The notes beneath the pieces were generated by a model. It was not told the origin of the DNA, did not search any database, and saw nothing but the letters and a program-made list of their open reading frames with translations. The translations under genes were made by a program, and so were the position numbers. A stretch of DNA of 64,000 bases from Parachlamydiales bacterium. Its GTDB lineage: Bacteria; Chlamydiota; Chlamydiia; Chlamydiales; JAJFMK01. The stretch lies in NCBI GenBank assembly GCA_963765145.1, contig CAVXVG010000029.1, forward strand, positions 128,001 to 192,000, in the 5' to 3' direction. Numbering within the stretch: position 1 is the stretch's first letter; each line of letters starts with the position of its first letter. This document shows, in pieces, positions 3,605 to 39,706 of the stretch.

Positions 3605-4722
3605 CGCGAAGCGTTTGGAGTGCTAAACGGCCTTGTTGCATAATTAAGCTTAATTTGGACAAATATTGTAGCTTAGGCTTTAGAGGCACTTGCAAAAATC
3701 AGGTTAAGCTTAAAATAGGCCCGCAAGGGCCGAAATATGAAAGCCCAGCGCCGAAGGCCTGGGTAAGAGTTGCAAATAGAAATTGGAGTCCTGAAGGGAC
3801 GACATATCCTGTTCTATAAATAGTCTAGAAGGCAATTATGCCGTCCTTTCAGGACTCCAATTATATTTCACATTTGTAACCCAGGCCTTCGGCGCTGGGC
3901 TTTCATATTTCGGTCCTTCGGACCTATTTTCTAGAGAAAAACCAACTATTCGAATTTTGCAAGTGGCTCTTTAGCCTGAGCTTGTTTTGCGGGGTTTTAA
4001 CCCCGCACATCTTCTGCAGGACTAAAGTCCTGCAAAACGAGCTCAGACTAAAGGGGCACTTGCAAAAATCGGACTCCAGATCACAATAGACCCTTATGTA
4101 TTGCATTAACCTAAGGAAAAGCTTCCTATAAATTAAACAGGATGAACAGGATCGCTCATCGAGCGACAGGATAAGCTCCGCCTAGCTTTATCATTTTGAA
4201 AATAGAAATCATTTTGTTGGCGAAGCTTATCCTGTTCACCCTGTTCATCCTGTTATTTTTATCTTGTAACCAAGAACTCTTAAGAGATGTTAAGGGCTTT
4301 ATCAGAGTTTATTCTGATTTTTGCAAGTGCCTCTAAAGTCTAAGCTACATTTTTTAATTAGAGATTGAATTATGCAACAAGGCCGTGCTAAAGTCCTGTT
4401 TAGCACGGCCTTGTTGCATAATTGTTCGCAACGTTTCTCTACTCCTGCAGCCTTACAGGCTGCCAATTTTATTCTCCAACTTAACCCGGGGCGTTGCCCG
4501 CGGGCTGTTGCAACTATCCGGCTTTCAGCCGGAAAATCCTAGCAATACAGGCTTTTCCCTTGGCCTGAAAGGCCAAAATTGCAACAGCCCGTGGGCAACG
4601 CCCCGGGTTTAGGATGAAACTTTATATGGCAGCCTGAAGGGCTGCAGGAGAAACGGGGAATCACGTGCAATTATGCAACAAGGCCGTGCTAAACTCCTGT
4701 TTAGCACTCCAAACGCTTCGCG
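3605..4722. mobile_element. nested composite of palindromic/MITE-like repeats: A[B1[C[D1[E], D2[F]]], B2[G]]
   Basis: A arms CGCGAAGCGTTTGGAGTGCTAAAC/GTTTAGCACTCCAAACGCTTCGCG; B1 3629-4384 and B2 4407-4685 (TIR GGCCTTGTTGCATAATT); C 3665-4351; D1 3683-3969 and D2 4053-4333 (TIR GAGGCACTTGCAAAAATC, TSD TTTA/TAAA); E 3712-3930; F ~4074-4280; G 4442-4650. Confidence 0.9.
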
Positions 4723-4739
4723 GAATAAAAATAAAAGAT

Positions 4740-15158: not shown

Positions 15159-15268
15159 AATGTAGCTTAGGACTTAGCCTGAGTTCGTTTTTGCGGTTTT
15201 TAACCCGCAATATTCCGGCAGGACTAAAGTCCTGAAAAACGAGCTCAGACTAAAGTCTAAGCTACATT
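15159..15268. repeat. repeat family C (inverted pair of GTAG-type REP hairpins, REPIN-like)
   Basis: AATGTAGCTTAG...CTAAGCTACATT flanked by TAT on both sides; related copies at 3665, 21701 and 43137. Confidence 0.85.
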
Positions 15269-21812: not shown

Positions 21813-24671
21813 CTACCAGAAAAGCTTCACGCCGCCAAGAACGGAGTAGCTGGTTGAATTGTTCCAAACCTCGCCGCTAAATTGGCCAATAAACCGAACT
21901 GTTTCGTCGGCATAATATTCAACGGTAAGGGCGCCATCTACGCTATTGCGAGGAACACGGACCCCTTCAGTGACAAACTCTGGACCAAAGCCGTTAAAAG
22001 CCATCGTCAGGTTATTTTTTGTGGTTGTCAGCTGATATTCCCAAGCAACATCAACACTAAACGAAAAGTCTGAAAACCATTCCATGGTGGTTACATGGAG
22101 GCCTAAGCGTGAGAAAGCAGAAGCCCTGTCTTTCTTCGATACTAATAGGCTCAAACCTTCTGCATTTTCTTCAGCAACGCTGTTTCTGCAAGAAGTGAAC
22201 CCTTCAATACCCACAAAAGGCTGTATCAAAATGTCACAAAGGGGCAAATCGACCCCTGCTTCAGCATAGGCGCTCCACTGTGTCAATTCTGGACGGCTGA
22301 CCGCATCAAAGGTCACCTCGCCTGCTCTTCCCTTTCTAAAAAGATGGTTTTGGGTGTATCCATAGGCCAAGTTACCTAAGGCATAAAAGTATTCGGGGCG
22401 GTACAGGGCGTAAAAGCCTGCATAACCACCCGTCAAGTCTCCGTGCCCACCGATGTTGTAGTTCAGTGTATCTGCAACATAAGAACCGGCAAAGCCCAAA
22501 ATCCAATCTTGGTTCATGTGGCTTTGGAAACCGAAAGTCACATCATAGCCTGAGAGGGTAAACCCAAAGCCGTTTCCGTCATTTCTTAAACTTTGACGGT
22601 CAAAACTTACTTCGCCCCATGTATCAATCCCTGAATAGCACTCCATTGCATACTGGTTACATGGCAATGTTGTGACCATGTCTCGTAACGGATCAAACAT
22701 CCTTCTTAGAAAGTTTCTGGTTAACAACGCGGTCGCATATAGATCTGCAGTGTGTTGGTTTCCAGAAAGTTCGTCCAACACTTCAATTGCTTGTGGAGTT
22801 GGAAGCAACGCAAGAGCCCCCAGAAAGCTATCTGCAAAAGGAGGTAAAGAATCCGATCTGTCTAAAACAGCAGCCACCGCTTTTTCATTAGGCGATATAG
22901 CAACAAGGCTAAACGTTGGGTTAAATTCTAAAAAGACTGAATTACCTACATAACTTATCAACGAATTTGCTAGGAGTGGGTTTACTCTTGCAATATTTAC
23001 GCTATTGAATGTCCCGTCTAAAGTTCCGGCATTTAAAATAGGGTATACTGTTGTAAAACTAATGCTGGGACCTATAGGCAACACTTGTAGATCAGCGCCA
23101 GAGATGGCAGCAGTTCCTGAAACATTCAACAGCGAACTTGTTGTGCCGCTAATTTGAGTGATAAGCGAACTACCAGGCTGGAATGTCACATCTCCTGTTA
23201 TATTGAGTGTGCCAATGCTGTTGCCTGGTTGAATAGAGCCTCCGGCTGCAACCACCGTACTAGAACCATTCAGCGTCCCTGCCCCTTGCAGTTGACCTTG
23301 GATTAAGTTGGTGTTGGTGTTGCTTCCGAAAAGGCCATTGATGGCTAAAACACCCGCCTGTACTTGTAACGACCCTTGAAAATCGGGAGAATTGCCTATC
23401 AAATTTAAAAGACCGGTTCCCGATTTAACAAAATTAACCCCGCTTCCCTCTATAGGACCTGCAAAGATAGAGTTGAAATTTTGGTTAACTTGCAAGTTAT
23501 CTAGAAGCATAATCGAGGCCGGAAAGGCATTATTTATACTGACTAAACCGGCGATTGTTTGTGGAGCTGCAACCGTTAGCTTCGTGCCATTGTCGTTTTG
23601 TGGATTAAACACAATAACCGAGTTAGGGCTTAATGAACCCGAAACATTTGTCCCTATCAATTCCCCTGTAAGTAACGTAGTTAAGCCTGAATAGGTATTA
23701 GGCTCAGTCAAAATGAAATCGCCGCCTTTACATGTCGACAAAGTCAAACCCCCGGCTCCAGAGATGGACCCGGCAAAAGTACCGCAGGAGGTTATTGTAA
23801 GAGTGGTTGTAGGCAACTCTCCCAAATTGATCATCCCAGATCCGCCAACCTCGACTGAAGTGATGCTGACATCATTCATGTTCAACTGGCCGTCTACGTT
23901 AAGCAAAGCTAATGGGTTAATAGTTGCTTTCTCTAAATTGAGGGCACCTGCGACTTGAACCTGCCCTCCAGATAATGAACCTGAAAACGTCAAAGTGTTG
24001 TTAGGTTGAATGAAGAGTGCAGAGTCTACCGGAAGGGTAATAGAACCTGCATAGGTATCTGCAACAGTCGCCGAATCTCCAAGCAGCAGGGTGCTAGTAG
24101 CGCCTAGAACAACAGATGAAAGCGCTGTACCAGACAACGATTCAATCGTTACATCTGCAGTAGGCCCAATCTGCAGAAGCGAATTATCGTTTAAAACAAC
24201 GTTTGCTCCAGTCGAAGTAGAGGTGCCTTGAAAAGTTAATGTAGAAGGGCTTCCATTGGCACCTGTCAAATGATATTGAACCGGTCCTGTAGAAGCTGTA
24301 TTTGCTGGAAAAGTTAAACTAGCGCCGGGAGCACCTGCCTCACCTACATTAAAAAATTGCACAGGAGTTGAACTGTTAGTAACACCAGGAGCACCTGCGA
24401 AAGACAAAGCGCTTCCCGGAGTAAGAGTGAAAATGTAGCTTGTCGTGTTTGCAACAGGAAAATCGATCGATCCTAAAGTCAAACTTCCGCTAAGGGATGG
24501 ATTTAACCCGGTATCAAGAAACTCGCCGGCCGAACCCACTGTGTTAGGAACCACTCCCCCTAACCAGTTTGTTCCGAGAGTTAAATCTGAGGTTGTACCT
24601 ATCCAGGGAGTATCTCCCGCTATGTTTACAAATGATCCAAGACATGCAACAATTATGATATTTTTTAACAT
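21813..24671 (-). CDS. autotransporter (type Va) with beta-strand-repeat passenger domain
   Basis: Signal peptide, G/S/T-rich passenger with NTYSGLT and KSGTGLL repeats, PGNSIGTL, C-terminal beta-barrel ending in FW. Confidence 0.9.
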   Translation of the reverse strand: MLKNIIIVACLGSFVNIAGDTPWIGTTSDLTLGTNWLGGVVPNTVGSAGEFLDTGLNPSLSGSLTLGSIDFPVANTTSYIFTLTPGSALSFAGAPGVTNSSTPVQFFNVGEAGAPGASLTFPANTASTGPVQYHLTGANGSPSTLTFQGTSTSTGANVVLNDNSLLQIGPTADVTIESLSGTALSSVVLGATSTLLLGDSATVADTYAGSITLPVDSALFIQPNNTLTFSGSLSGGQVQVAGALNLEKATINPLALLNVDGQLNMNDVSITSVEVGGSGMINLGELPTTTLTITSCGTFAGSISGAGGLTLSTCKGGDFILTEPNTYSGLTTLLTGELIGTNVSGSLSPNSVIVFNPQNDNGTKLTVAAPQTIAGLVSINNAFPASIMLLDNLQVNQNFNSIFAGPIEGSGVNFVKSGTGLLNLIGNSPDFQGSLQVQAGVLAINGLFGSNTNTNLIQGQLQGAGTLNGSSTVVAAGGSIQPGNSIGTLNITGDVTFQPGSSLITQISGTTSSLLNVSGTAAISGADLQVLPIGPSISFTTVYPILNAGTLDGTFNSVNIARVNPLLANSLISYVGNSVFLEFNPTFSLVAISPNEKAVAAVLDRSDSLPPFADSFLGALALLPTPQAIEVLDELSGNQHTADLYATALLTRNFLRRMFDPLRDMVTTLPCNQYAMECYSGIDTWGEVSFDRQSLRNDGNGFGFTLSGYDVTFGFQSHMNQDWILGFAGSYVADTLNYNIGGHGDLTGGYAGFYALYRPEYFYALGNLAYGYTQNHLFRKGRAGEVTFDAVSRPELTQWSAYAEAGVDLPLCDILIQPFVGIEGFTSCRNSVAEENAEGLSLLVSKKDRASAFSRLGLHVTTMEWFSDFSFSVDVAWEYQLTTTKNNLTMAFNGFGPEFVTEGVRVPRNSVDGALTVEYYADETVRFIGQFSGEVWNNSTSYSVLGGVKLFW

Positions 24672-25132: not shown

Positions 25133-25380
25133 AATCAAAAATGGAATTTTGCTTTTTCTAACGCGTGAGCGTTTGGAGTGCTAAACTCCTGTTTAGCTTT
25201 CACTCTCACTAACAAGTGAAAGCTAAACAGGAGTTTAGCACATACTGTAATTGCGCTTCAGAGCTTAGCCGGTAAGAAAATGGGCTGTTCTAGGAGGGTT
25301 TTAAAAACCCCACGGAGTAGTACTAGACTCTCCAGGCTTTGGCTTGGTAGCCTAAGCAAGCAATACAGGAGAACAGCCCA

Positions 25381-26481
25381 ATGAAACATTATATCGGTTT
25401 AGACGTATCTTTGAAAACTACTGCCATCTGCATCATGGCTCAAGATGGTAAGATCATCCGAGAGATGACAGCCGCTACTGACCCTTTAGCTATCGCAACT
25501 GCGATCAAGACGACCAAGCTCACTATTGAAGCTATAGCAATTGAAGCTGGTGGAACAAGCCGATGGCTTGTTCAAGAACTTCAAGAGCTTGACCTTCCAG
25601 CGATATGTATCGACTCTCGCAAAATGGCTGCCGCCATCGCAATCAAAGCCAATAAAACAGACAAAAACGATGCGAGGGAAATCGCAAACGCCCTTCGGAC
25701 TGGCTACTTTCAAGAGGTCTATCAAAAAAACGATACAAATATGAGCATCAAAAGTCTCGTAAACATCCGACGCAATCTGGTGATACAAAGAACCATGACG
25801 AGTAACTGTATCCGCGGTACTTTGAGATGTTGTGGAAAGCTTTTTTTAGGGTCTAGTAGTAGTCAAAAGAACTTCATAGAGAAGGTAACAGAGTCGATAC
25901 AAGATCAACCTGAAGAGGTCGCAATGGGCATTCGTGCACTTTTAGTAACCTTTTCTCAACTTCACAAACTAGTAGATGAAATAGACAAGAAGATCGAAGA
26001 CATAGGAAAGAATGACGAAGTCGTTCAGCTGCTAATGACAGTTCCTGGTGTAGGGATCGTAACTGCAGTGAGCTATAAGGTTGAAATTGGAGACCCAAAA
26101 AGATTCACACGATCGAGGTCAGTTGGAGCATATGTTGGGATGACTCCAAGGCAGTATAGTTCAGGTGAAACCGAGCATCAGGGGAAAATAACAAAGATTG
26201 GATCAAATGAACTCAGAGCGCTGCTATCTGATGCCGCCATGAGCATGATGTATCGATGCAAAACATGGAGTAGAGCCAAAGTTTTTGGGCTAAAGATCAA
26301 TAAGAAGCATGGGCATAAAAAAGCTATAGTTGCCCTTGGTCGGAAGCTTGGTGTGATAATGCATCGAATGTGGACAGAAGGTAAACCATTTGAAGCTGGT
26401 GAAGTCGAGAAAAAAGAAATTGATAAAGTAACCAAGCCAAGTCGGAAAGAGAAGAAAAAATCAAAGCAGATGGCTGCTTAA
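25381..26481 (+). CDS. IS110-family DEDD recombinase/transposase
   Basis: GLDVS, IEAG, KTDKND, VPGVG, GMTPRQYSSGE (catalytic Ser), ALGRKL. Confidence 0.96.
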   Translation: MKHYIGLDVSLKTTAICIMAQDGKIIREMTAATDPLAIATAIKTTKLTIEAIAIEAGGTSRWLVQELQELDLPAICIDSRKMAAAIAIKANKTDKNDAREIANALRTGYFQEVYQKNDTNMSIKSLVNIRRNLVIQRTMTSNCIRGTLRCCGKLFLGSSSSQKNFIEKVTESIQDQPEEVAMGIRALLVTFSQLHKLVDEIDKKIEDIGKNDEVVQLLMTVPGVGIVTAVSYKVEIGDPKRFTRSRSVGAYVGMTPRQYSSGETEHQGKITKIGSNELRALLSDAAMSMMYRCKTWSRAKVFGLKINKKHGHKKAIVALGRKLGVIMHRMWTEGKPFEAGEVEKKEIDKVTKPSRKEKKKSKQMAA

Positions 26482-26556
26482 GAAAAGTTAAAAAAGTTCT
26501 CAAAGAGCGAAAGAGCAGAGAGAGTAAGAAAAAAGATTCAAATACGAGTTCGAAAT

Positions 26557-26706
26557 AAGGTTAAGACGCTTTGGAGTTGACGCTAATAAGACGTCGTGTA
26601 GCACATTGTCTTACCTTGTTTCTTTTGGAAAGTATGTTGGGGCTGAAGATCAGCTAATAAGGCCGAAATCTTCAATAAAAAGGACCCCGGAGAGAACTAT
26701 GACCGA
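26557..26706 (+). ncRNA. predicted bridge/seek RNA (target- and donor-binding loops)
   Basis: Target guides TTTGGAGT (26570-77) and GTGTAGCAC (26596-604) inside stem AAGG(T)TAAGAC/GTCTTACCTT; donor guides AGTATGT (26631-37) and AGAGAAC (26691-97); transcript ends unknown. Confidence 0.85.
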
Positions 26707-26872
26707 GTTAGAATTTTATTTTTTACGATCAAGCTTTGGAAGCCCATAGAGGAAGTTGTCAATTATCTTGGGGGAAGTATCCCCCAAACCCCCTCGGCTT
26801 AGGAAGGGGAAAGAGAAAAAATCATGCTTGCCTAGAAACGCAATTAGAGAACTCCAAACGCTTCGCGGACTT

Positions 26873-30658: not shown

Positions 30659-32151
30659 GCCAAATACCTGAGCACCCCTTTGAGGGGCAAATCCATGTGA
30701 CAGAAATGGGCAGCAGTTCTTCAGAACAGACCCTTCAAAGCTCCCTACAACAAGGGGTCCAAAGAACAGAGCATCCTTTAGACCTTCAAAGAATGCTAGA
30801 AAGCCAAGAAAACTTTAACCAAGAAATGTCGTTGCTAACATCACATGGGGATAAAATCCGCGTCAATTTTTCTGCCGATCTTGGAGATATCAAAAAAACA
30901 TATACGAAACTCTCTTTTGAAGAATTCATTGCGAATCCGACTGGGCGGAATGCCCTAAACCGATTTATAGAGAATAGGATTGCTTTTGCAGGCGAGGTTT
31001 ATGCTGATATCCATGCTGATATGGATGACATTTGTAGCCACTTTCAGATGAACAAGGAGGACATTAAAGAAATTTCGCTCAAATTTCTTGGTGCAGATTC
31101 CCACAACAAAGGAAAATCTACAGTTCTAATTGAATTCGTTACTAATACCGGGGAAACAAAAAGCATCTTTTACAAACCCCGATTGATGAAATTAGAACAC
31201 CTCACTTGCGATAATGAAAAGGGGATTTTCTCACAATTAAAACACTTTCCAGGGATCGATGAATTAGGCGACGTTGCAGCTTTCACCTACCCTGTACTTT
31301 CTGTAGTTAAAGAAGATAGACACTATGGCTATAGTCAAAAAATCGATGGACAGGTTCTATATGACGAAAAAGAGACACCACCGGACGAGGATCCATCGAT
31401 CACTTCTCCCCATTTCATGATTCCTGAAAATCCAATGACAACTCGGGAATTTCTAGAACTTGTGACTAGCTTAAAAGAGCTAGCAGGTGCGGATGTTGCT
31501 TTAGCAGAAACTTGTGACGCTAGTTTTTTTTCAACTAGATCTAATGAACAGCTTAAATCGGACTATCTTCTATTTTTTGTCTTATCTCTCTTAAAATTAA
31601 GCGATCTACACTGTGGAAACTTTATTCGTTCTGATCCTTCTGGGATTTTGGTGCCTATAGACTTAGAATGTATCCAAGAGGGAGATGCCGCAATGACTCT
31701 TTTACAAATACAGGTAGAACTGGACAGGAGAGGCATTGAACTGCCGCAAGGACCGCTCGATAAAATAAAAGACTATATTGAAAATCTACACCTCGACCAT
31801 GGAAATGAACCTCTTCGCGAGGTCCCAATTGCAACAGGATTATTGTGCGTTCTACGAGAAAAATATTTAACCAAAAGAGCACTTCCCGCAATAGCAGAAT
31901 TTAAACGTGAAATTCAAGAAAGTTATGTTATTGATGACATTAAATCTGTCGATAGATTGATAGATGAAAGTTTTAAAAATTTTGACATCCCTTACTTTAT
32001 TTTAAGAGGCGATCAACTCTTTTTTGACGGAGTTCATGTCGGACGAAGAAAAACTCAAGAAGAGCTCGAGCAAACTAGACTTGAAACTGAAGCCTTTCTA
32101 GCGTCTTCTGCTAACTCAGTCGTGATCAACGAAGATGAAGACTCCAGTTGA
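30655..32151 (+). CDS. DUF4135 (LanM dehydratase/kinase-like) domain protein, stand-alone
   Basis: GADSHNKGK, FYKPR, YGY, LSDLHCGN, PIDLE; no cyclase domain. Confidence 0.75.
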   Translation: MSQIPEHPFEGQIHVTEMGSSSSEQTLQSSLQQGVQRTEHPLDLQRMLESQENFNQEMSLLTSHGDKIRVNFSADLGDIKKTYTKLSFEEFIANPTGRNALNRFIENRIAFAGEVYADIHADMDDICSHFQMNKEDIKEISLKFLGADSHNKGKSTVLIEFVTNTGETKSIFYKPRLMKLEHLTCDNEKGIFSQLKHFPGIDELGDVAAFTYPVLSVVKEDRHYGYSQKIDGQVLYDEKETPPDEDPSITSPHFMIPENPMTTREFLELVTSLKELAGADVALAETCDASFFSTRSNEQLKSDYLLFFVLSLLKLSDLHCGNFIRSDPSGILVPIDLECIQEGDAAMTLLQIQVELDRRGIELPQGPLDKIKDYIENLHLDHGNEPLREVPIATGLLCVLREKYLTKRALPAIAEFKREIQESYVIDDIKSVDRLIDESFKNFDIPYFILRGDQLFFDGVHVGRRKTQEELEQTRLETEAFLASSANSVVINEDEDSS

Positions 32152-32194
32152 CAAAAATAAAAACTAAACTTTATGCTATTGTTAGGTAAAGATT

Positions 32195-32542
32195 ATGAGT
32201 GGTATAGGCCAAAAGTTCTACAGACACGCTCAGTATTTGTTTAAATTAGAATCAAAAAAAACAACTACTGACATAAAGCAGCACTGCGTAGATTTAGCTG
32301 GAGAGGCCTTAAAACAAAAAATCCGAGAAATCTCTAAAAAACATCTAACTGAAACCAAAATTCTTCTTAAAGAGCAAGCTAAAACGTCCTTTACACAAGC
32401 ACCCAGCACTTCTGATGTGAACAATGGCATTGAGTTGCTTGAAACCGGATTCAGTAAGCTAGAAACTTCGTTATTCAATGAACTTTCGACAAAACCAACA
32501 ACCAGCTCTGGCAGCGAGCAGCATCCTCCCATCAAAGTTTAG
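32195..32542 (+). CDS. hypothetical protein
   Basis: 115 aa ORF; upstream TTGACA-N17-TATGCT promoter-like sequence. Confidence 0.55.
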   Translation: MSGIGQKFYRHAQYLFKLESKKTTTDIKQHCVDLAGEALKQKIREISKKHLTETKILLKEQAKTSFTQAPSTSDVNNGIELLETGFSKLETSLFNELSTKPTTSSGSEQHPPIKV

Positions 32543-34083
32543 TGGGCGACAGCGGGGACTTTATCTTGTTTGCCTTGGACTTTCTTGCAGAGGAAAAGGA
32601 AGGGAATCATACCGAGGAAGAGCCAGGCGCCAAGCCAGGAAACATCATTGGTCGCTAGCATAAATGCCTGTTGTTCGACTAGAGTGTCTAAAAACTCGCT
32701 TGCCTTAGGAAATGTAAACGAAGAATTGAACCTCTCAATGTCCCTGTAAAAATCAAGCGTTGCCGGCTCAAAATAGGCGATTGCCTCCGAGAGGCGCGCA
32801 TGATGAAAAATCTCGAGCCTTGTCCAAAGTTGAATGGAAAGGGAGGTGCCAAAACCGCTACCAACCAATATTCGGATAAAATGGTACAGGCCGGTGGCGC
32901 TAGCATATTTTTCGCCAGGAATTTCGGCCATGGATAGTTGAACAAGGGGAAGAAAGAAAAATAGGATGCCAAACCCTTGTATAAACCTGGAATACATCAA
33001 CGTACCCAAATCAACGTCTGTCGTAAAATTGGCTTGGTAAAAGAATCCCAACGACAACAAGAAAAAGCTTAACGCCACCACTTTTCTCATATCAAAACGG
33101 TATAGATTTTTTCCCATAATGGTTGAAAATAGAAACGGAACCACACCGATGGGGGCAACTGCAATCCCCGCCCAATATGCCATATAACCTTGTTCTGTTT
33201 GCAACCAAAGAGGGATGGTCACCGTGCTCCCAAAGTAGATAAGGTATCCTATCGTTACTGCAATTGTCCCGATGGCAAAATTGCGGTTCGTAAAAAAAGA
33301 AAAGTCGACAATTCGAAAGGTTTGGTAACGGTTCCAGGCAAAAAAGAGGGCAAAAGAGACGATGGCAGCGACTGTCAATCCAACAATGAAGTTGGATTCA
33401 AACCAATCGAGATCTTTTCCTTTATCTAGCATGACTTGCAGACAACTAACGCCGGTAGCTAGAAAAGCAAGCCCTGTCCAATCGATGGGGTTTCTTTTGA
33501 TAATGCTTTCTTTATCTTTTAAAAATGTCCAAACAATAAACCCTGAAAACAACCCGATTGGAACATTGATATAAAAAATCCATGGCCAAGAATATTCTTC
33601 AGTTAAATACCCTCCAATAATCGGACCTAAAATGGGGGCAACAATCACAATCGTTCCCCAAAATCCGAGAGCCGAACCTTGATTTTCCGGCGGATTATGG
33701 ACCATCAACAAACTTTGAGACAGCGGAATAAGCGAACCTGCAACAGCCCCTTGCAGCACCCTAAAAACAACCAACATTGCAAGGCTTGTCGAAAGGGCAC
33801 ATAAAAAAGAGGTAATCGAAAATAAGATGACTGACCAAACAAACAGTTTCACTTGCCCAAAATAGTCTGATAACCAACCGGTCAATGGTAAGACAACCGC
33901 GTTACTCGCTGCAAAGGAGGTGATCACCCAAGTCCCCTGATCAGCACTTACACTCAAATTTCCGGCGATGTAAGGGATTGCAACGTTTGCGATCGAGGAG
34001 TCGAGGATCTGAATAAAGGTTCCGAGCCCGATGGCCACATTCAGCAGCATCAACCGCCCATCTGTGTAATATGTACTGCTCAT
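32539..34083 (-). CDS. emrB: DHA2 family MFS efflux permease (EmrB-like)
   Basis: LDSSIANVAIP, WVITSF, FRVLQG, APILGPIIGG, WPWIFYINVP. Confidence 0.9.
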   Translation of the reverse strand: MSSTYYTDGRLMLLNVAIGLGTFIQILDSSIANVAIPYIAGNLSVSADQGTWVITSFAASNAVVLPLTGWLSDYFGQVKLFVWSVILFSITSFLCALSTSLAMLVVFRVLQGAVAGSLIPLSQSLLMVHNPPENQGSALGFWGTIVIVAPILGPIIGGYLTEEYSWPWIFYINVPIGLFSGFIVWTFLKDKESIIKRNPIDWTGLAFLATGVSCLQVMLDKGKDLDWFESNFIVGLTVAAIVSFALFFAWNRYQTFRIVDFSFFTNRNFAIGTIAVTIGYLIYFGSTVTIPLWLQTEQGYMAYWAGIAVAPIGVVPFLFSTIMGKNLYRFDMRKVVALSFFLLSLGFFYQANFTTDVDLGTLMYSRFIQGFGILFFFLPLVQLSMAEIPGEKYASATGLYHFIRILVGSGFGTSLSIQLWTRLEIFHHARLSEAIAYFEPATLDFYRDIERFNSSFTFPKASEFLDTLVEQQAFMLATNDVSWLGAWLFLGMIPFLFLCKKVQGKQDKVPAVAH

Positions 34084-39439: not shown

Positions 39440-39441
39440 AT

Positions 39442-39706
39442 CGCGAAGCGTTTGGAATGCGAAACTCCTGGTTAGCTTTCACTTTCACTGATAAGTCAAA
39501 GCTAAACAGGAGTTTAGCACGGCCTTGTTGCATAATTAACCACTCCAGATCTCGAAAGAAAATTTGAGGTGGTGAGAAATAAATAAACGCCCTTCGGGCG
39601 TTTATTTCTATGCAGCGAGTAATTGTACAACAAGGCCGTTTAGCACTCCTGAGTAACTCAACTTTAATCAAAAAAACACTTTCTTCCTTGCTCCAAACGC
39701 TTCGCG
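39442..39706. repeat. repeat family A copy carrying element B (39521-39637) and a 41 bp extra insert (39650-39690)
   Basis: B flanked by a 9 bp duplication GTTTAGCAC (39512-20, 39638-46); second insert flanked by duplicated CTCC. Confidence 0.88.

Follow-up and report, generated by a model that had tools for sequence, protein, structure and literature searches.

A probable bridge-RNA-guided IS1111-group element inserted in a multicopy intergenic palindrome of a Parachlamydiales genome

The insertion sequence at positions 25242-26852 (1611 bp with one core counted) of the window, by which we mean the whole 64,000-nucleotide stretch analysed (G000:C29:128001-192000, G000 being the source genome), is very probably a recently active member of the ISMno22 branch of the IS1111 group that moves by bridge-RNA-guided recombination. 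The evidence at the level of the sequence comprises the insertion site, the core, the intact catalytic residues, the RNA stems and the covariation of guides with DNA. We infer transcription, processing, the circle, promoter activity, catalysis and the function of the handshake from published work on IS621 and ISEc11. The coordinates of all features are collected in Table 1.

Table 1. Features of the element, its predicted RNA and the occupied repeat, in window coordinates
Feature	Position	Strand	Basis or remark
Repeat A (~95-bp palindrome): left arm, loop and inner right arm; last bases TTTAGC = target left half	25162..25239	+	
AC core, left junction	25240..25241	+	identical in 5/5 copies
Left terminal extension ATACTG = donor right half	25242..25247	+	
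Left subterminal inverted repeat TAATTGCGCTTC	25248..25259	+	complementary to 26835-46 at 11/12
IS110-family DEDD recombinase, 366 aa	25381..26481	+	intact ORF, domain and residue matches
Predicted bridge (seek) RNA with target-binding and donor-binding modules	26540..26708	+	covariance model, consensus stems
First target guide TTTGGA+GT, complements top strand of core and right flank	26570..26577	+	covaries at positions 1-6 from core
Target-loop apical hairpin; contains the non-conserved 9-mer at 26582-90	26579..26595	+	
Second target guide (G)TAGC+AC, then handshake AT (26605-06)	26598..26606	+	covaries at positions 1-5
First donor guide AGTAT, then non-conserved GT	26631..26637	+	three covarying positions, n=27
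Variable apical arm of donor module; second 9-mer copy at 26653-61	26645..26673	+	
Second donor guide AGAGA+AC, then handshake TA (26698-99)	26691..26699	+	invariant
Predicted -35 box TTGCCT, circle-junction promoter	26828..26833	+	18 nt from CATACT, 8/12 consensus
Right subterminal inverted repeat GAAACGCAATTA	26835..26846	+	
Right extension GAGA (donor left half) + AC core, right junction	26847..26852	+	
Outer end of repeat A right arm; TCCAAA = target right half	26853..26867	+	

The left junction reads TTTAGC-AC-ATACTG and the right junction GAGA-AC-TCCAAAC. As the target and donor sequences diverge on each side of AC, the shared core is exactly 2 nt. The AC at both junctions (25240-41 and 26851-52) had been noted in the original prediction, which also gave a circle junction TAGAG-AAC-ATACT that is correct in sequence but not in its hyphenation, which should be TAGAGA-AC-ATACT. 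The subterminal inverted repeats are 12 bp long with 1 mismatch; their variants are mirrored in the homologues, the 9-nt core in all 31 scored. Across the junction they stand 12 nt apart (6 + 2-nt core + 4) in the element and its homologues alike. The terminal extensions canonical for IS1111 are 7 (or 6) and 3 bp, which the element does not have; the IS4321 and ISKpn2 controls fit the 7/3 spacing and ISMno22 has 6/4 as the element does. The 6/4 spacing appears to be a trait of the branch rather than grounds to exclude the element from the IS1111 group. The placement in that group, as first proposed, agrees with the 3′ non-coding region (371 nt 3′ of the gene vs 139 nt 5′ of it), the subterminal inverted repeats, the guide order and the 40% identity to ISMno22, though the end spacing is non-canonical. 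At one homologous locus (L110) the right end carries a short duplication, with two successive inverted-repeat-plus-core units 21 nt apart.

The recombinase matches Pfam PF01548 (RuvC-like DEDD domain) and PF02371 (C-terminal Tnp domain with the catalytic serine) above the cut-off and NCBIfam NF033542 with 240.9 bits (cut-off 140). Its residues D8, E55, D94, D97 and S261 align with D11, E60, D102, D105 and S241 of IS621, and the catalytic residues are invariant or nearly so among 36 aligned homologues. In the closed circle, the core C and the left extension would supply a -10 box CATACT (25241-46) to the predicted junction promoter. It may be noted that this is a weak consensus match. Several homologues have TTGAC-type boxes at the place of the TTGCCT of the element, and most of the 26 scored junctions reach 8-10/12 of the consensus, many of them with TTGAC at the equivalent place. 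A promoter scan of the linear element performed no better than chance. Between the RNA and the right end (26770-26809) lie two GC-rich hairpins exclusive to the five copies; the equivalent spacer of the homologues holds unrelated palindromic inserts.

A BLAST search of the source genome gave 5 full copies with identities of 99.6% or more, together with a remnant of 51 bp from the right end. In all 5 full copies the insertion is at the AC core of a repeat A arm, to which they are oriented alike, and the flanks are identical at both junctions; the remnant, which keeps the right flank only, is also at the AC core; the mapping of all copies that had been proposed as a check thus came out in favour of the prediction. 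The element is always in the 'right' arm because the palindrome is symmetric. The copies differ internally at 2 positions, one of which is a frame-breaking insertion of 1 bp in one copy. In this copy (G000:C29:48882-50491; L021/L022) the recombinase gene is split, and as its ends and RNA are intact it could be movable in trans. At window position 25759 the window copy alone has G, the other four having T, which changes the nearly invariant Leu127 to Val. The remnant (G000:C21:174121-174171) is joined to the repeat arm beside a different repeat, as an old insertion scar.

Repeat A is, like a REPIN, a high-copy intergenic palindrome of inverted end units, with 130 paired elements that mostly have 79-87 bp between the end motifs. 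There are 178 occurrences of the target 12-mer TAGCACTCCAAA, where 0.6 would be expected, and only 22 12-mers of the genome are as frequent. All 178 are perfect empty sites, including the five listed earlier for the window (3614, 4702, 15634, 15698 and 25172), each of which we found again. The predicted multicopy intergenic nature of the target is evident here, as 177 of the 178 sites lie in a repeat end and 172 lie outside long ORFs (6 are inside ORFs of at least 150 aa, which cover 77% of the genome). Since the target is frequent and almost always intergenic, insertions would be cheap for the host. The exact 16-mer was found in none of 40 relatives; for the shorter end motif there are 235 matches in G147, 122 in G388 and 63 in G240, and 28 of 401 genomes have at least one. 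By this distribution repeat A appears to be a patchy, mobile repeat. The right junction of the element was present in none of the 5 other genomes carrying the repeat end and in none of the viral contigs; 2 of these 5 genomes have IS110 genes. In the three distant genomes with 63-235 copies of the end, no element junction was found in the search made.

A RAYT cognate to repeat A was looked for among the 6 matches to PF01797 (Y1 transposase) in the assembly, which is 85% complete: two are associated with another repeat family and none of the 6 has family A ends within ~1.5 kb. The other family is a second palindrome starting TGTAGCTTAG, which flanks the Y1 transposase fragments L142 and L143 (G000:C5:119344 and C28:46907), a candidate RAYT locus, and has copies in the window at 15174, 21702 and 43152. 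A 952-aa protein encoded at window 21813-24671 (-) is autotransporter-like by eye.

For the RNA, homologous loci were drawn from three sources: metagenomes, with the best 80 of 343 loci confirmed; 401 genomes of the phylum, of which 31 matched; and 41 relatives. The resulting 137 loci gave 55 with a donor-loop anchor and 48 distinct bridge regions, of which 36, hand-picked by the analyst, constitute the structural alignment. A scan of the genome collection with a single protein gave 5 distant loci, which were left out of the analysis. The consensus has 23 pairs in three helices, 16 of them changed on both sides in the 36 regions, and 96.4% of cells are paired vs 84.1% when shuffled and 33-47% when slid. 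In the donor-module stem, which has compensatory changes, all cells (100%) are paired. The target-loop stem proposed at 26557-67/26608-17 is present with one bulge. The covariance model locates the RNA as given in Table 1 and has 23 more matches in 56 sources, including the 3′ end of ISMno22 (E 0.001); it has none in four classical IS1111-group elements, nor in a second IS110-family element of this genome described below. Rfam holds no family matching the RNA, and on the palindrome it gave only sub-threshold hairpin matches. The fold of 26482-26853 is more stable than expected (z=-3.86), and 26540-26720 alone reaches only z=-1.71. One metatranscriptome covers 25167-200 and 25305-508 only, at a depth below 3, and no joints were seen in the sparse low-depth contigs of 4 sequencing runs (best share 0.26).

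All four guide motifs of the original prediction are at their positions, namely TTTGGAGT (26570-77), GTGTAGCAC (26596-604), AGTATGT (26631-37) and AGAGAAC (26691-97). A 9-mer GCTAATAAG shared by the two apical arms is likewise present at 26582 and 26653, above shuffle chance (66/20000), but it occurs in only 1 of the 48 bridge regions; in the other 47 only 3-7 nt are common to both arms. The idea that it is a protein-binding motif of both loops was rejected as a family trait on this count. The guide motifs are short, and singly they turned up in 80, 84, 1322 and 393 of 5000 dinucleotide shuffles of 26482-26830, i.e. 2-26%, as would be the case if they were chance matches or scars of captured target DNA and the protein set the site choice. 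Jointly they occur in none of the 5000 shuffles. Such a reading is also contradicted already by the position-specific covariation, given below, in dozens of homologues with different targets, and we give it next to no probability.

The covariation of guides and DNA, proposed earlier as a check, was found for targets and donors across the homologues. Guides were taken from alignment columns, and 20000 permutations were used on the 48 bridge regions, scored where the end was recognisable (36 and 27 of 48). Ends were located by patterns requiring the AC core and loci with other ends were dropped; conservation of the AC core on the DNA side is circular because these patterns contain it. The first target guide matches the reverse complement of the right flank at 5.17/7 vs 2.56 permuted (maximum 3.42; n=36, the element itself excluded), positions 1-6 from the core covarying and position 7 not. 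The second target guide matches the left flank at 4.78 vs 2.07 permuted (n=27), or 4.73 vs 2.06 without our own element (n=26). Here positions 1-5 covary and positions 6 and 7 do not (p 0.21 and 0.94), therefore the effective guide is ~5 nt plus the core, of which 4 plus the core match in this element. The 8/9 match claimed for GTGTAGCAC is thus present, but positions 6-7 of its GTGTAGC are non-covarying scaffold. One wrong-pairing control was null (2.56 vs 2.42, p 0.16); the other, the first guide against the left flank, was weakly positive (2.41 vs 1.90, p 0.012). In disjoint pairs of nearest relatives, used to lessen the effect of relatedness, a guide matched its own flank better than the swapped one in 37:2 pairs for the first and 24:2 for the second target guide. 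The covariance model added 11 loci, at which the first target guide scored 4.0/6 vs 1.86 (p 5e-5); the second scored 5/5 vs 2.63 (n=4, p 0.044).

Without the own element the first donor guide scores 5.77 vs 4.39 permuted (n=26). Its covarying positions (n=27) match at 0.78, 0.85 and 0.96 vs 0.48, 0.37 and 0.51, the next two bases (AT) are invariant and the core-pairing bases vary, with GTT in 4 of 48 regions. Of the donor match AGTATGT first proposed, AGTAT stands, with three covarying positions, and GT is not conserved. The other proposed donor match, AGAGAAC, is an invariant match in 41 of 41, so no covariation can be read from this second guide. In disjoint pairs the own donor matched better in 6:0; in the held-out loci the donor guide was non-significant (n=4, p 0.086). 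We considered that the target loop (~26549-26630) alone may be functional, the protein recognising the ends through the subterminal inverted repeats and the second module being dispensable. For ISEc11, an RNA of 82 nt with target matches only sufficed (PMC11187229), the strict mirroring of the inverted repeats in the homologues suits such end recognition, and so do the invariance of the second donor guide and the unconserved core-pairing bases of the first. Against it, the first donor guide tracks variable donor bases across homologues, including all the disjoint pairs that decide, and the donor-module stem is maintained by compensatory changes. We regard a dispensable donor module as quite unlikely; the covariation supports a real donor loop in this IS1111-group element.

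Handshake pairing, as described in PMC11208158 and PMC13626964, was also read. In the element there are 0 matches before exchange and 3 after (hand-read; the donor begins with AT and the target with TC): the target-loop AT matches the first two donor bases and the T of the donor-loop TA matches the base with which the target starts. Averaged over 26 homologues, the matches rise from 0.85 before exchange to 2.88 after it, with 24 gaining and none losing, mostly via the invariant AT; core plus handshake, ACAT, is present in 44 of 48 bridge regions. The donor-loop handshake covaries modestly (0.98/2 vs 0.67, n=41), with only 6:2 among the disjoint pairs and p 0.049 for the held-out loci, which may support handshake pairing in an IS1111-group element.

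Pairing with the RNA may be required without being sufficient, if target choice also depends on the repeat A hairpin, as has been reported for ISPpu10 (bioRxiv 10.64898/2026.03.19.712850). Long hairpins (-32 to -53 kcal/mol) form in 4 of the 5 reconstructed empty sites, and the short form of the repeat, which makes up 40 of the 178 sites, is absent from all 5. Drawing all 5 from the 138 long-form sites would however happen by chance in ~28% of cases by arithmetic, the copy on C27 lacks the opposite arm, and the many flanks of a homologue in G084 are unrelated, non-repeat sequences with only the short motif in common. A role of the hairpin is rather unlikely on balance, and both it and a dispensable donor module modify RNA guidance and do not replace it. 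The G084 homologue (L145-L174) has 56 matches, many truncated, in degenerate and mostly unrelated flanks, which looks like relaxed targeting and decay. Repeat targeting as a trait of the clade was rejected on account of these flanks.

We take guided recombination, with both loops, as the preferred reading, and the steps would then be as follows. The recombinase and the RNA from the 3′ non-coding end would release the element as a circle joined at TAGAGA-AC-ATACT, whose junction would form a sigma-70-like promoter for transcription of both the RNA and the recombinase gene. The target (T)TAGC-AC-TCCAAA, in an arm of repeat A, would be paired on its two strands by the first loop, and the circle junction likewise by the second. 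Strand exchange would take place at the AC core, and the handshake dinucleotides would favour insertion by their gain in matches. The guide order, with the complement of the top strand before the match to the bottom strand, is the IS1111 order of PMC11187229.

PMC11208160 and PMC11187229 describe guidance by bridge or seek RNAs, REP targeting and the right-end RNAs of IS1111 elements. ISMno22 is the closest named relative (40% identical over 341 aa), groups with the element in the tree (94/99) and, like it, has a 2-nt core with inverted repeats at distances of 6 nt and 4 nt; unlike it, ISMno22 is alphaproteobacterial and GC-rich, with an apparent AG core instead of AC and other guides and target. 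Its cluster includes ISMex9, ISAzs32 and ISMpo4, and the source data of PMC11187229 assign it to the IS1111 family. The tree of 27 proteins, which has no IS110-group outgroup, joins the family of the element to ISMno22, apart from IS4321, ISKpn2, IS5708 and ISShdy1, to which the element is only 27-31% identical. With ISEc11, ISKpn4 and ISPa11 (PMC11187229) the element shares the guide RNA 3′ of the transposase, subterminal inverted repeats, guide order and a junction promoter (predicted in the element), and ISPa11 also targets a REP repeat according to that source. The differences from these classical elements are the 12 nt between repeats across the junction vs 10, the 366 aa vs 330-350 and the covarying donor module evident in the element. 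IS621 and ISCro4 (PMC11208160, PMC11208158; PDB 8wt6, 9t56) have in common with it the two-loop RNA, a 2-nt core and the same catalytic residues. IS621 moreover has a REP-type target (PMC11208160) and a target-loop handshake of AU, with three pairs after exchange against 1 match before it (PMC13626964). On the other hand, the RNA of the element is at the right end, its sites are inverted relative to the gene, its core is GT/AC vs CT, its inverted repeats are long and its protein is distant (E 3e-14). Its bottom-strand donor ACAGTAT-GT-TCTCT has the same 7-nt half ACAGTAT as the IS621 donor ACAGTAT-CT-TGTAT (PMC11208160). This identical inverted half would fit an ancestor common with IS621 in which the sites were flipped relative to the gene; promoter constraints could have contributed to it.

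A second IS110-family element, single copy, lies at G000:C25 ~31093-32619 (L023:1379-2905). It encodes a protein of 362 aa that is 26% identical to the first, has 14-bp near-terminal inverted repeats and a predicted 3′ bridge RNA at ~L023:2549-2690, and is inserted, in reverse relative to the first, in a repeat A of short form. The same core dinucleotide as in the first element was considered and rejected: read from homologues, the core is AG and overlaps the GT of the first element by one base. Its guides covary in loops readable at 11 of 19 loci (4.75/5 vs 1.98, n=8; 4.4/5 vs 1.72, n=5), and the first guide fits exactly an arm variant of 23 copies, with two mismatches to the occupied variant (177 copies). 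In its use of repeat A the second element is convergent with the first. ISPpu9 and ISPpu10 of Pseudomonas putida KT2440 (PMC12288879) are likewise two IS110-family elements on the same palindromic repeat in one genome. They are IS110-group and 58% similar, whereas the present two are 26% identical, have predicted 3′ RNAs and differ from them in their opposite orientations and in cores one base apart.

The end modules of repeat A diverge exactly at the AC/GT core after TTTAGCAC, being of type 1 in 174 and type 2 in 27 of 303 places (for example at window 39441-39545, 4368-4424 and 4669-4724). On dividing the 130 pairs, 96 are type 1-1, 32 mixed and 2 type 2-2, where free assortment expects 96.5, 31 and 2.5. 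Bridge recombinases might contribute to building repeat A as well as parasitising it. Acting at ~180 sites, two unrelated recombinases whose cores overlap would then shuffle its ends and rearrange the chromosome through RNA-guided recombination, either target-to-target or half-match. Half-match recombination is reported in a bioRxiv preprint. The guide of neither element matches the type 2 end, though, and RAYT activity, or ordinary arm-to-arm recombination, accounts for the assortment equally well; we hold such a role in building the repeat to be very unlikely. A homologue in G261 (L109, L176-L184), whose guides are changed, has TACGCA-AC-AA(A/G)GCC as its insertion site, a sequence similar to the type 2 end; G261 itself has only 1 empty match of this pattern.

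A literature search covering few subscription journals found no paper on the element or on bridge RNAs of its branch; one study (PMC5896051) reportedly covers IS1111 and MITEs in Coxiella. The element is a well-supported new example of the RNA-guided IS110/IS1111 mechanism described in 2024 and not a new system, and repeat targeting by IS110/IS1111 elements, even by two together, is already published in the sources on IS621, ISPa11 and ISPpu9/ISPpu10. Its importance is modest and the known mechanism is unchanged. It adds a naturally reprogrammed family of bridge recombinases, with 48 distinct guide sets, an AC core and very low scaffold ambiguity, and together with the C25 element it provides a natural pair of distant recombinases on one repeat in opposite orientation. 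The covariation of the donor loop bears on the very point that divides the bridge and seekRNA models, and the element allows a direct test of it.
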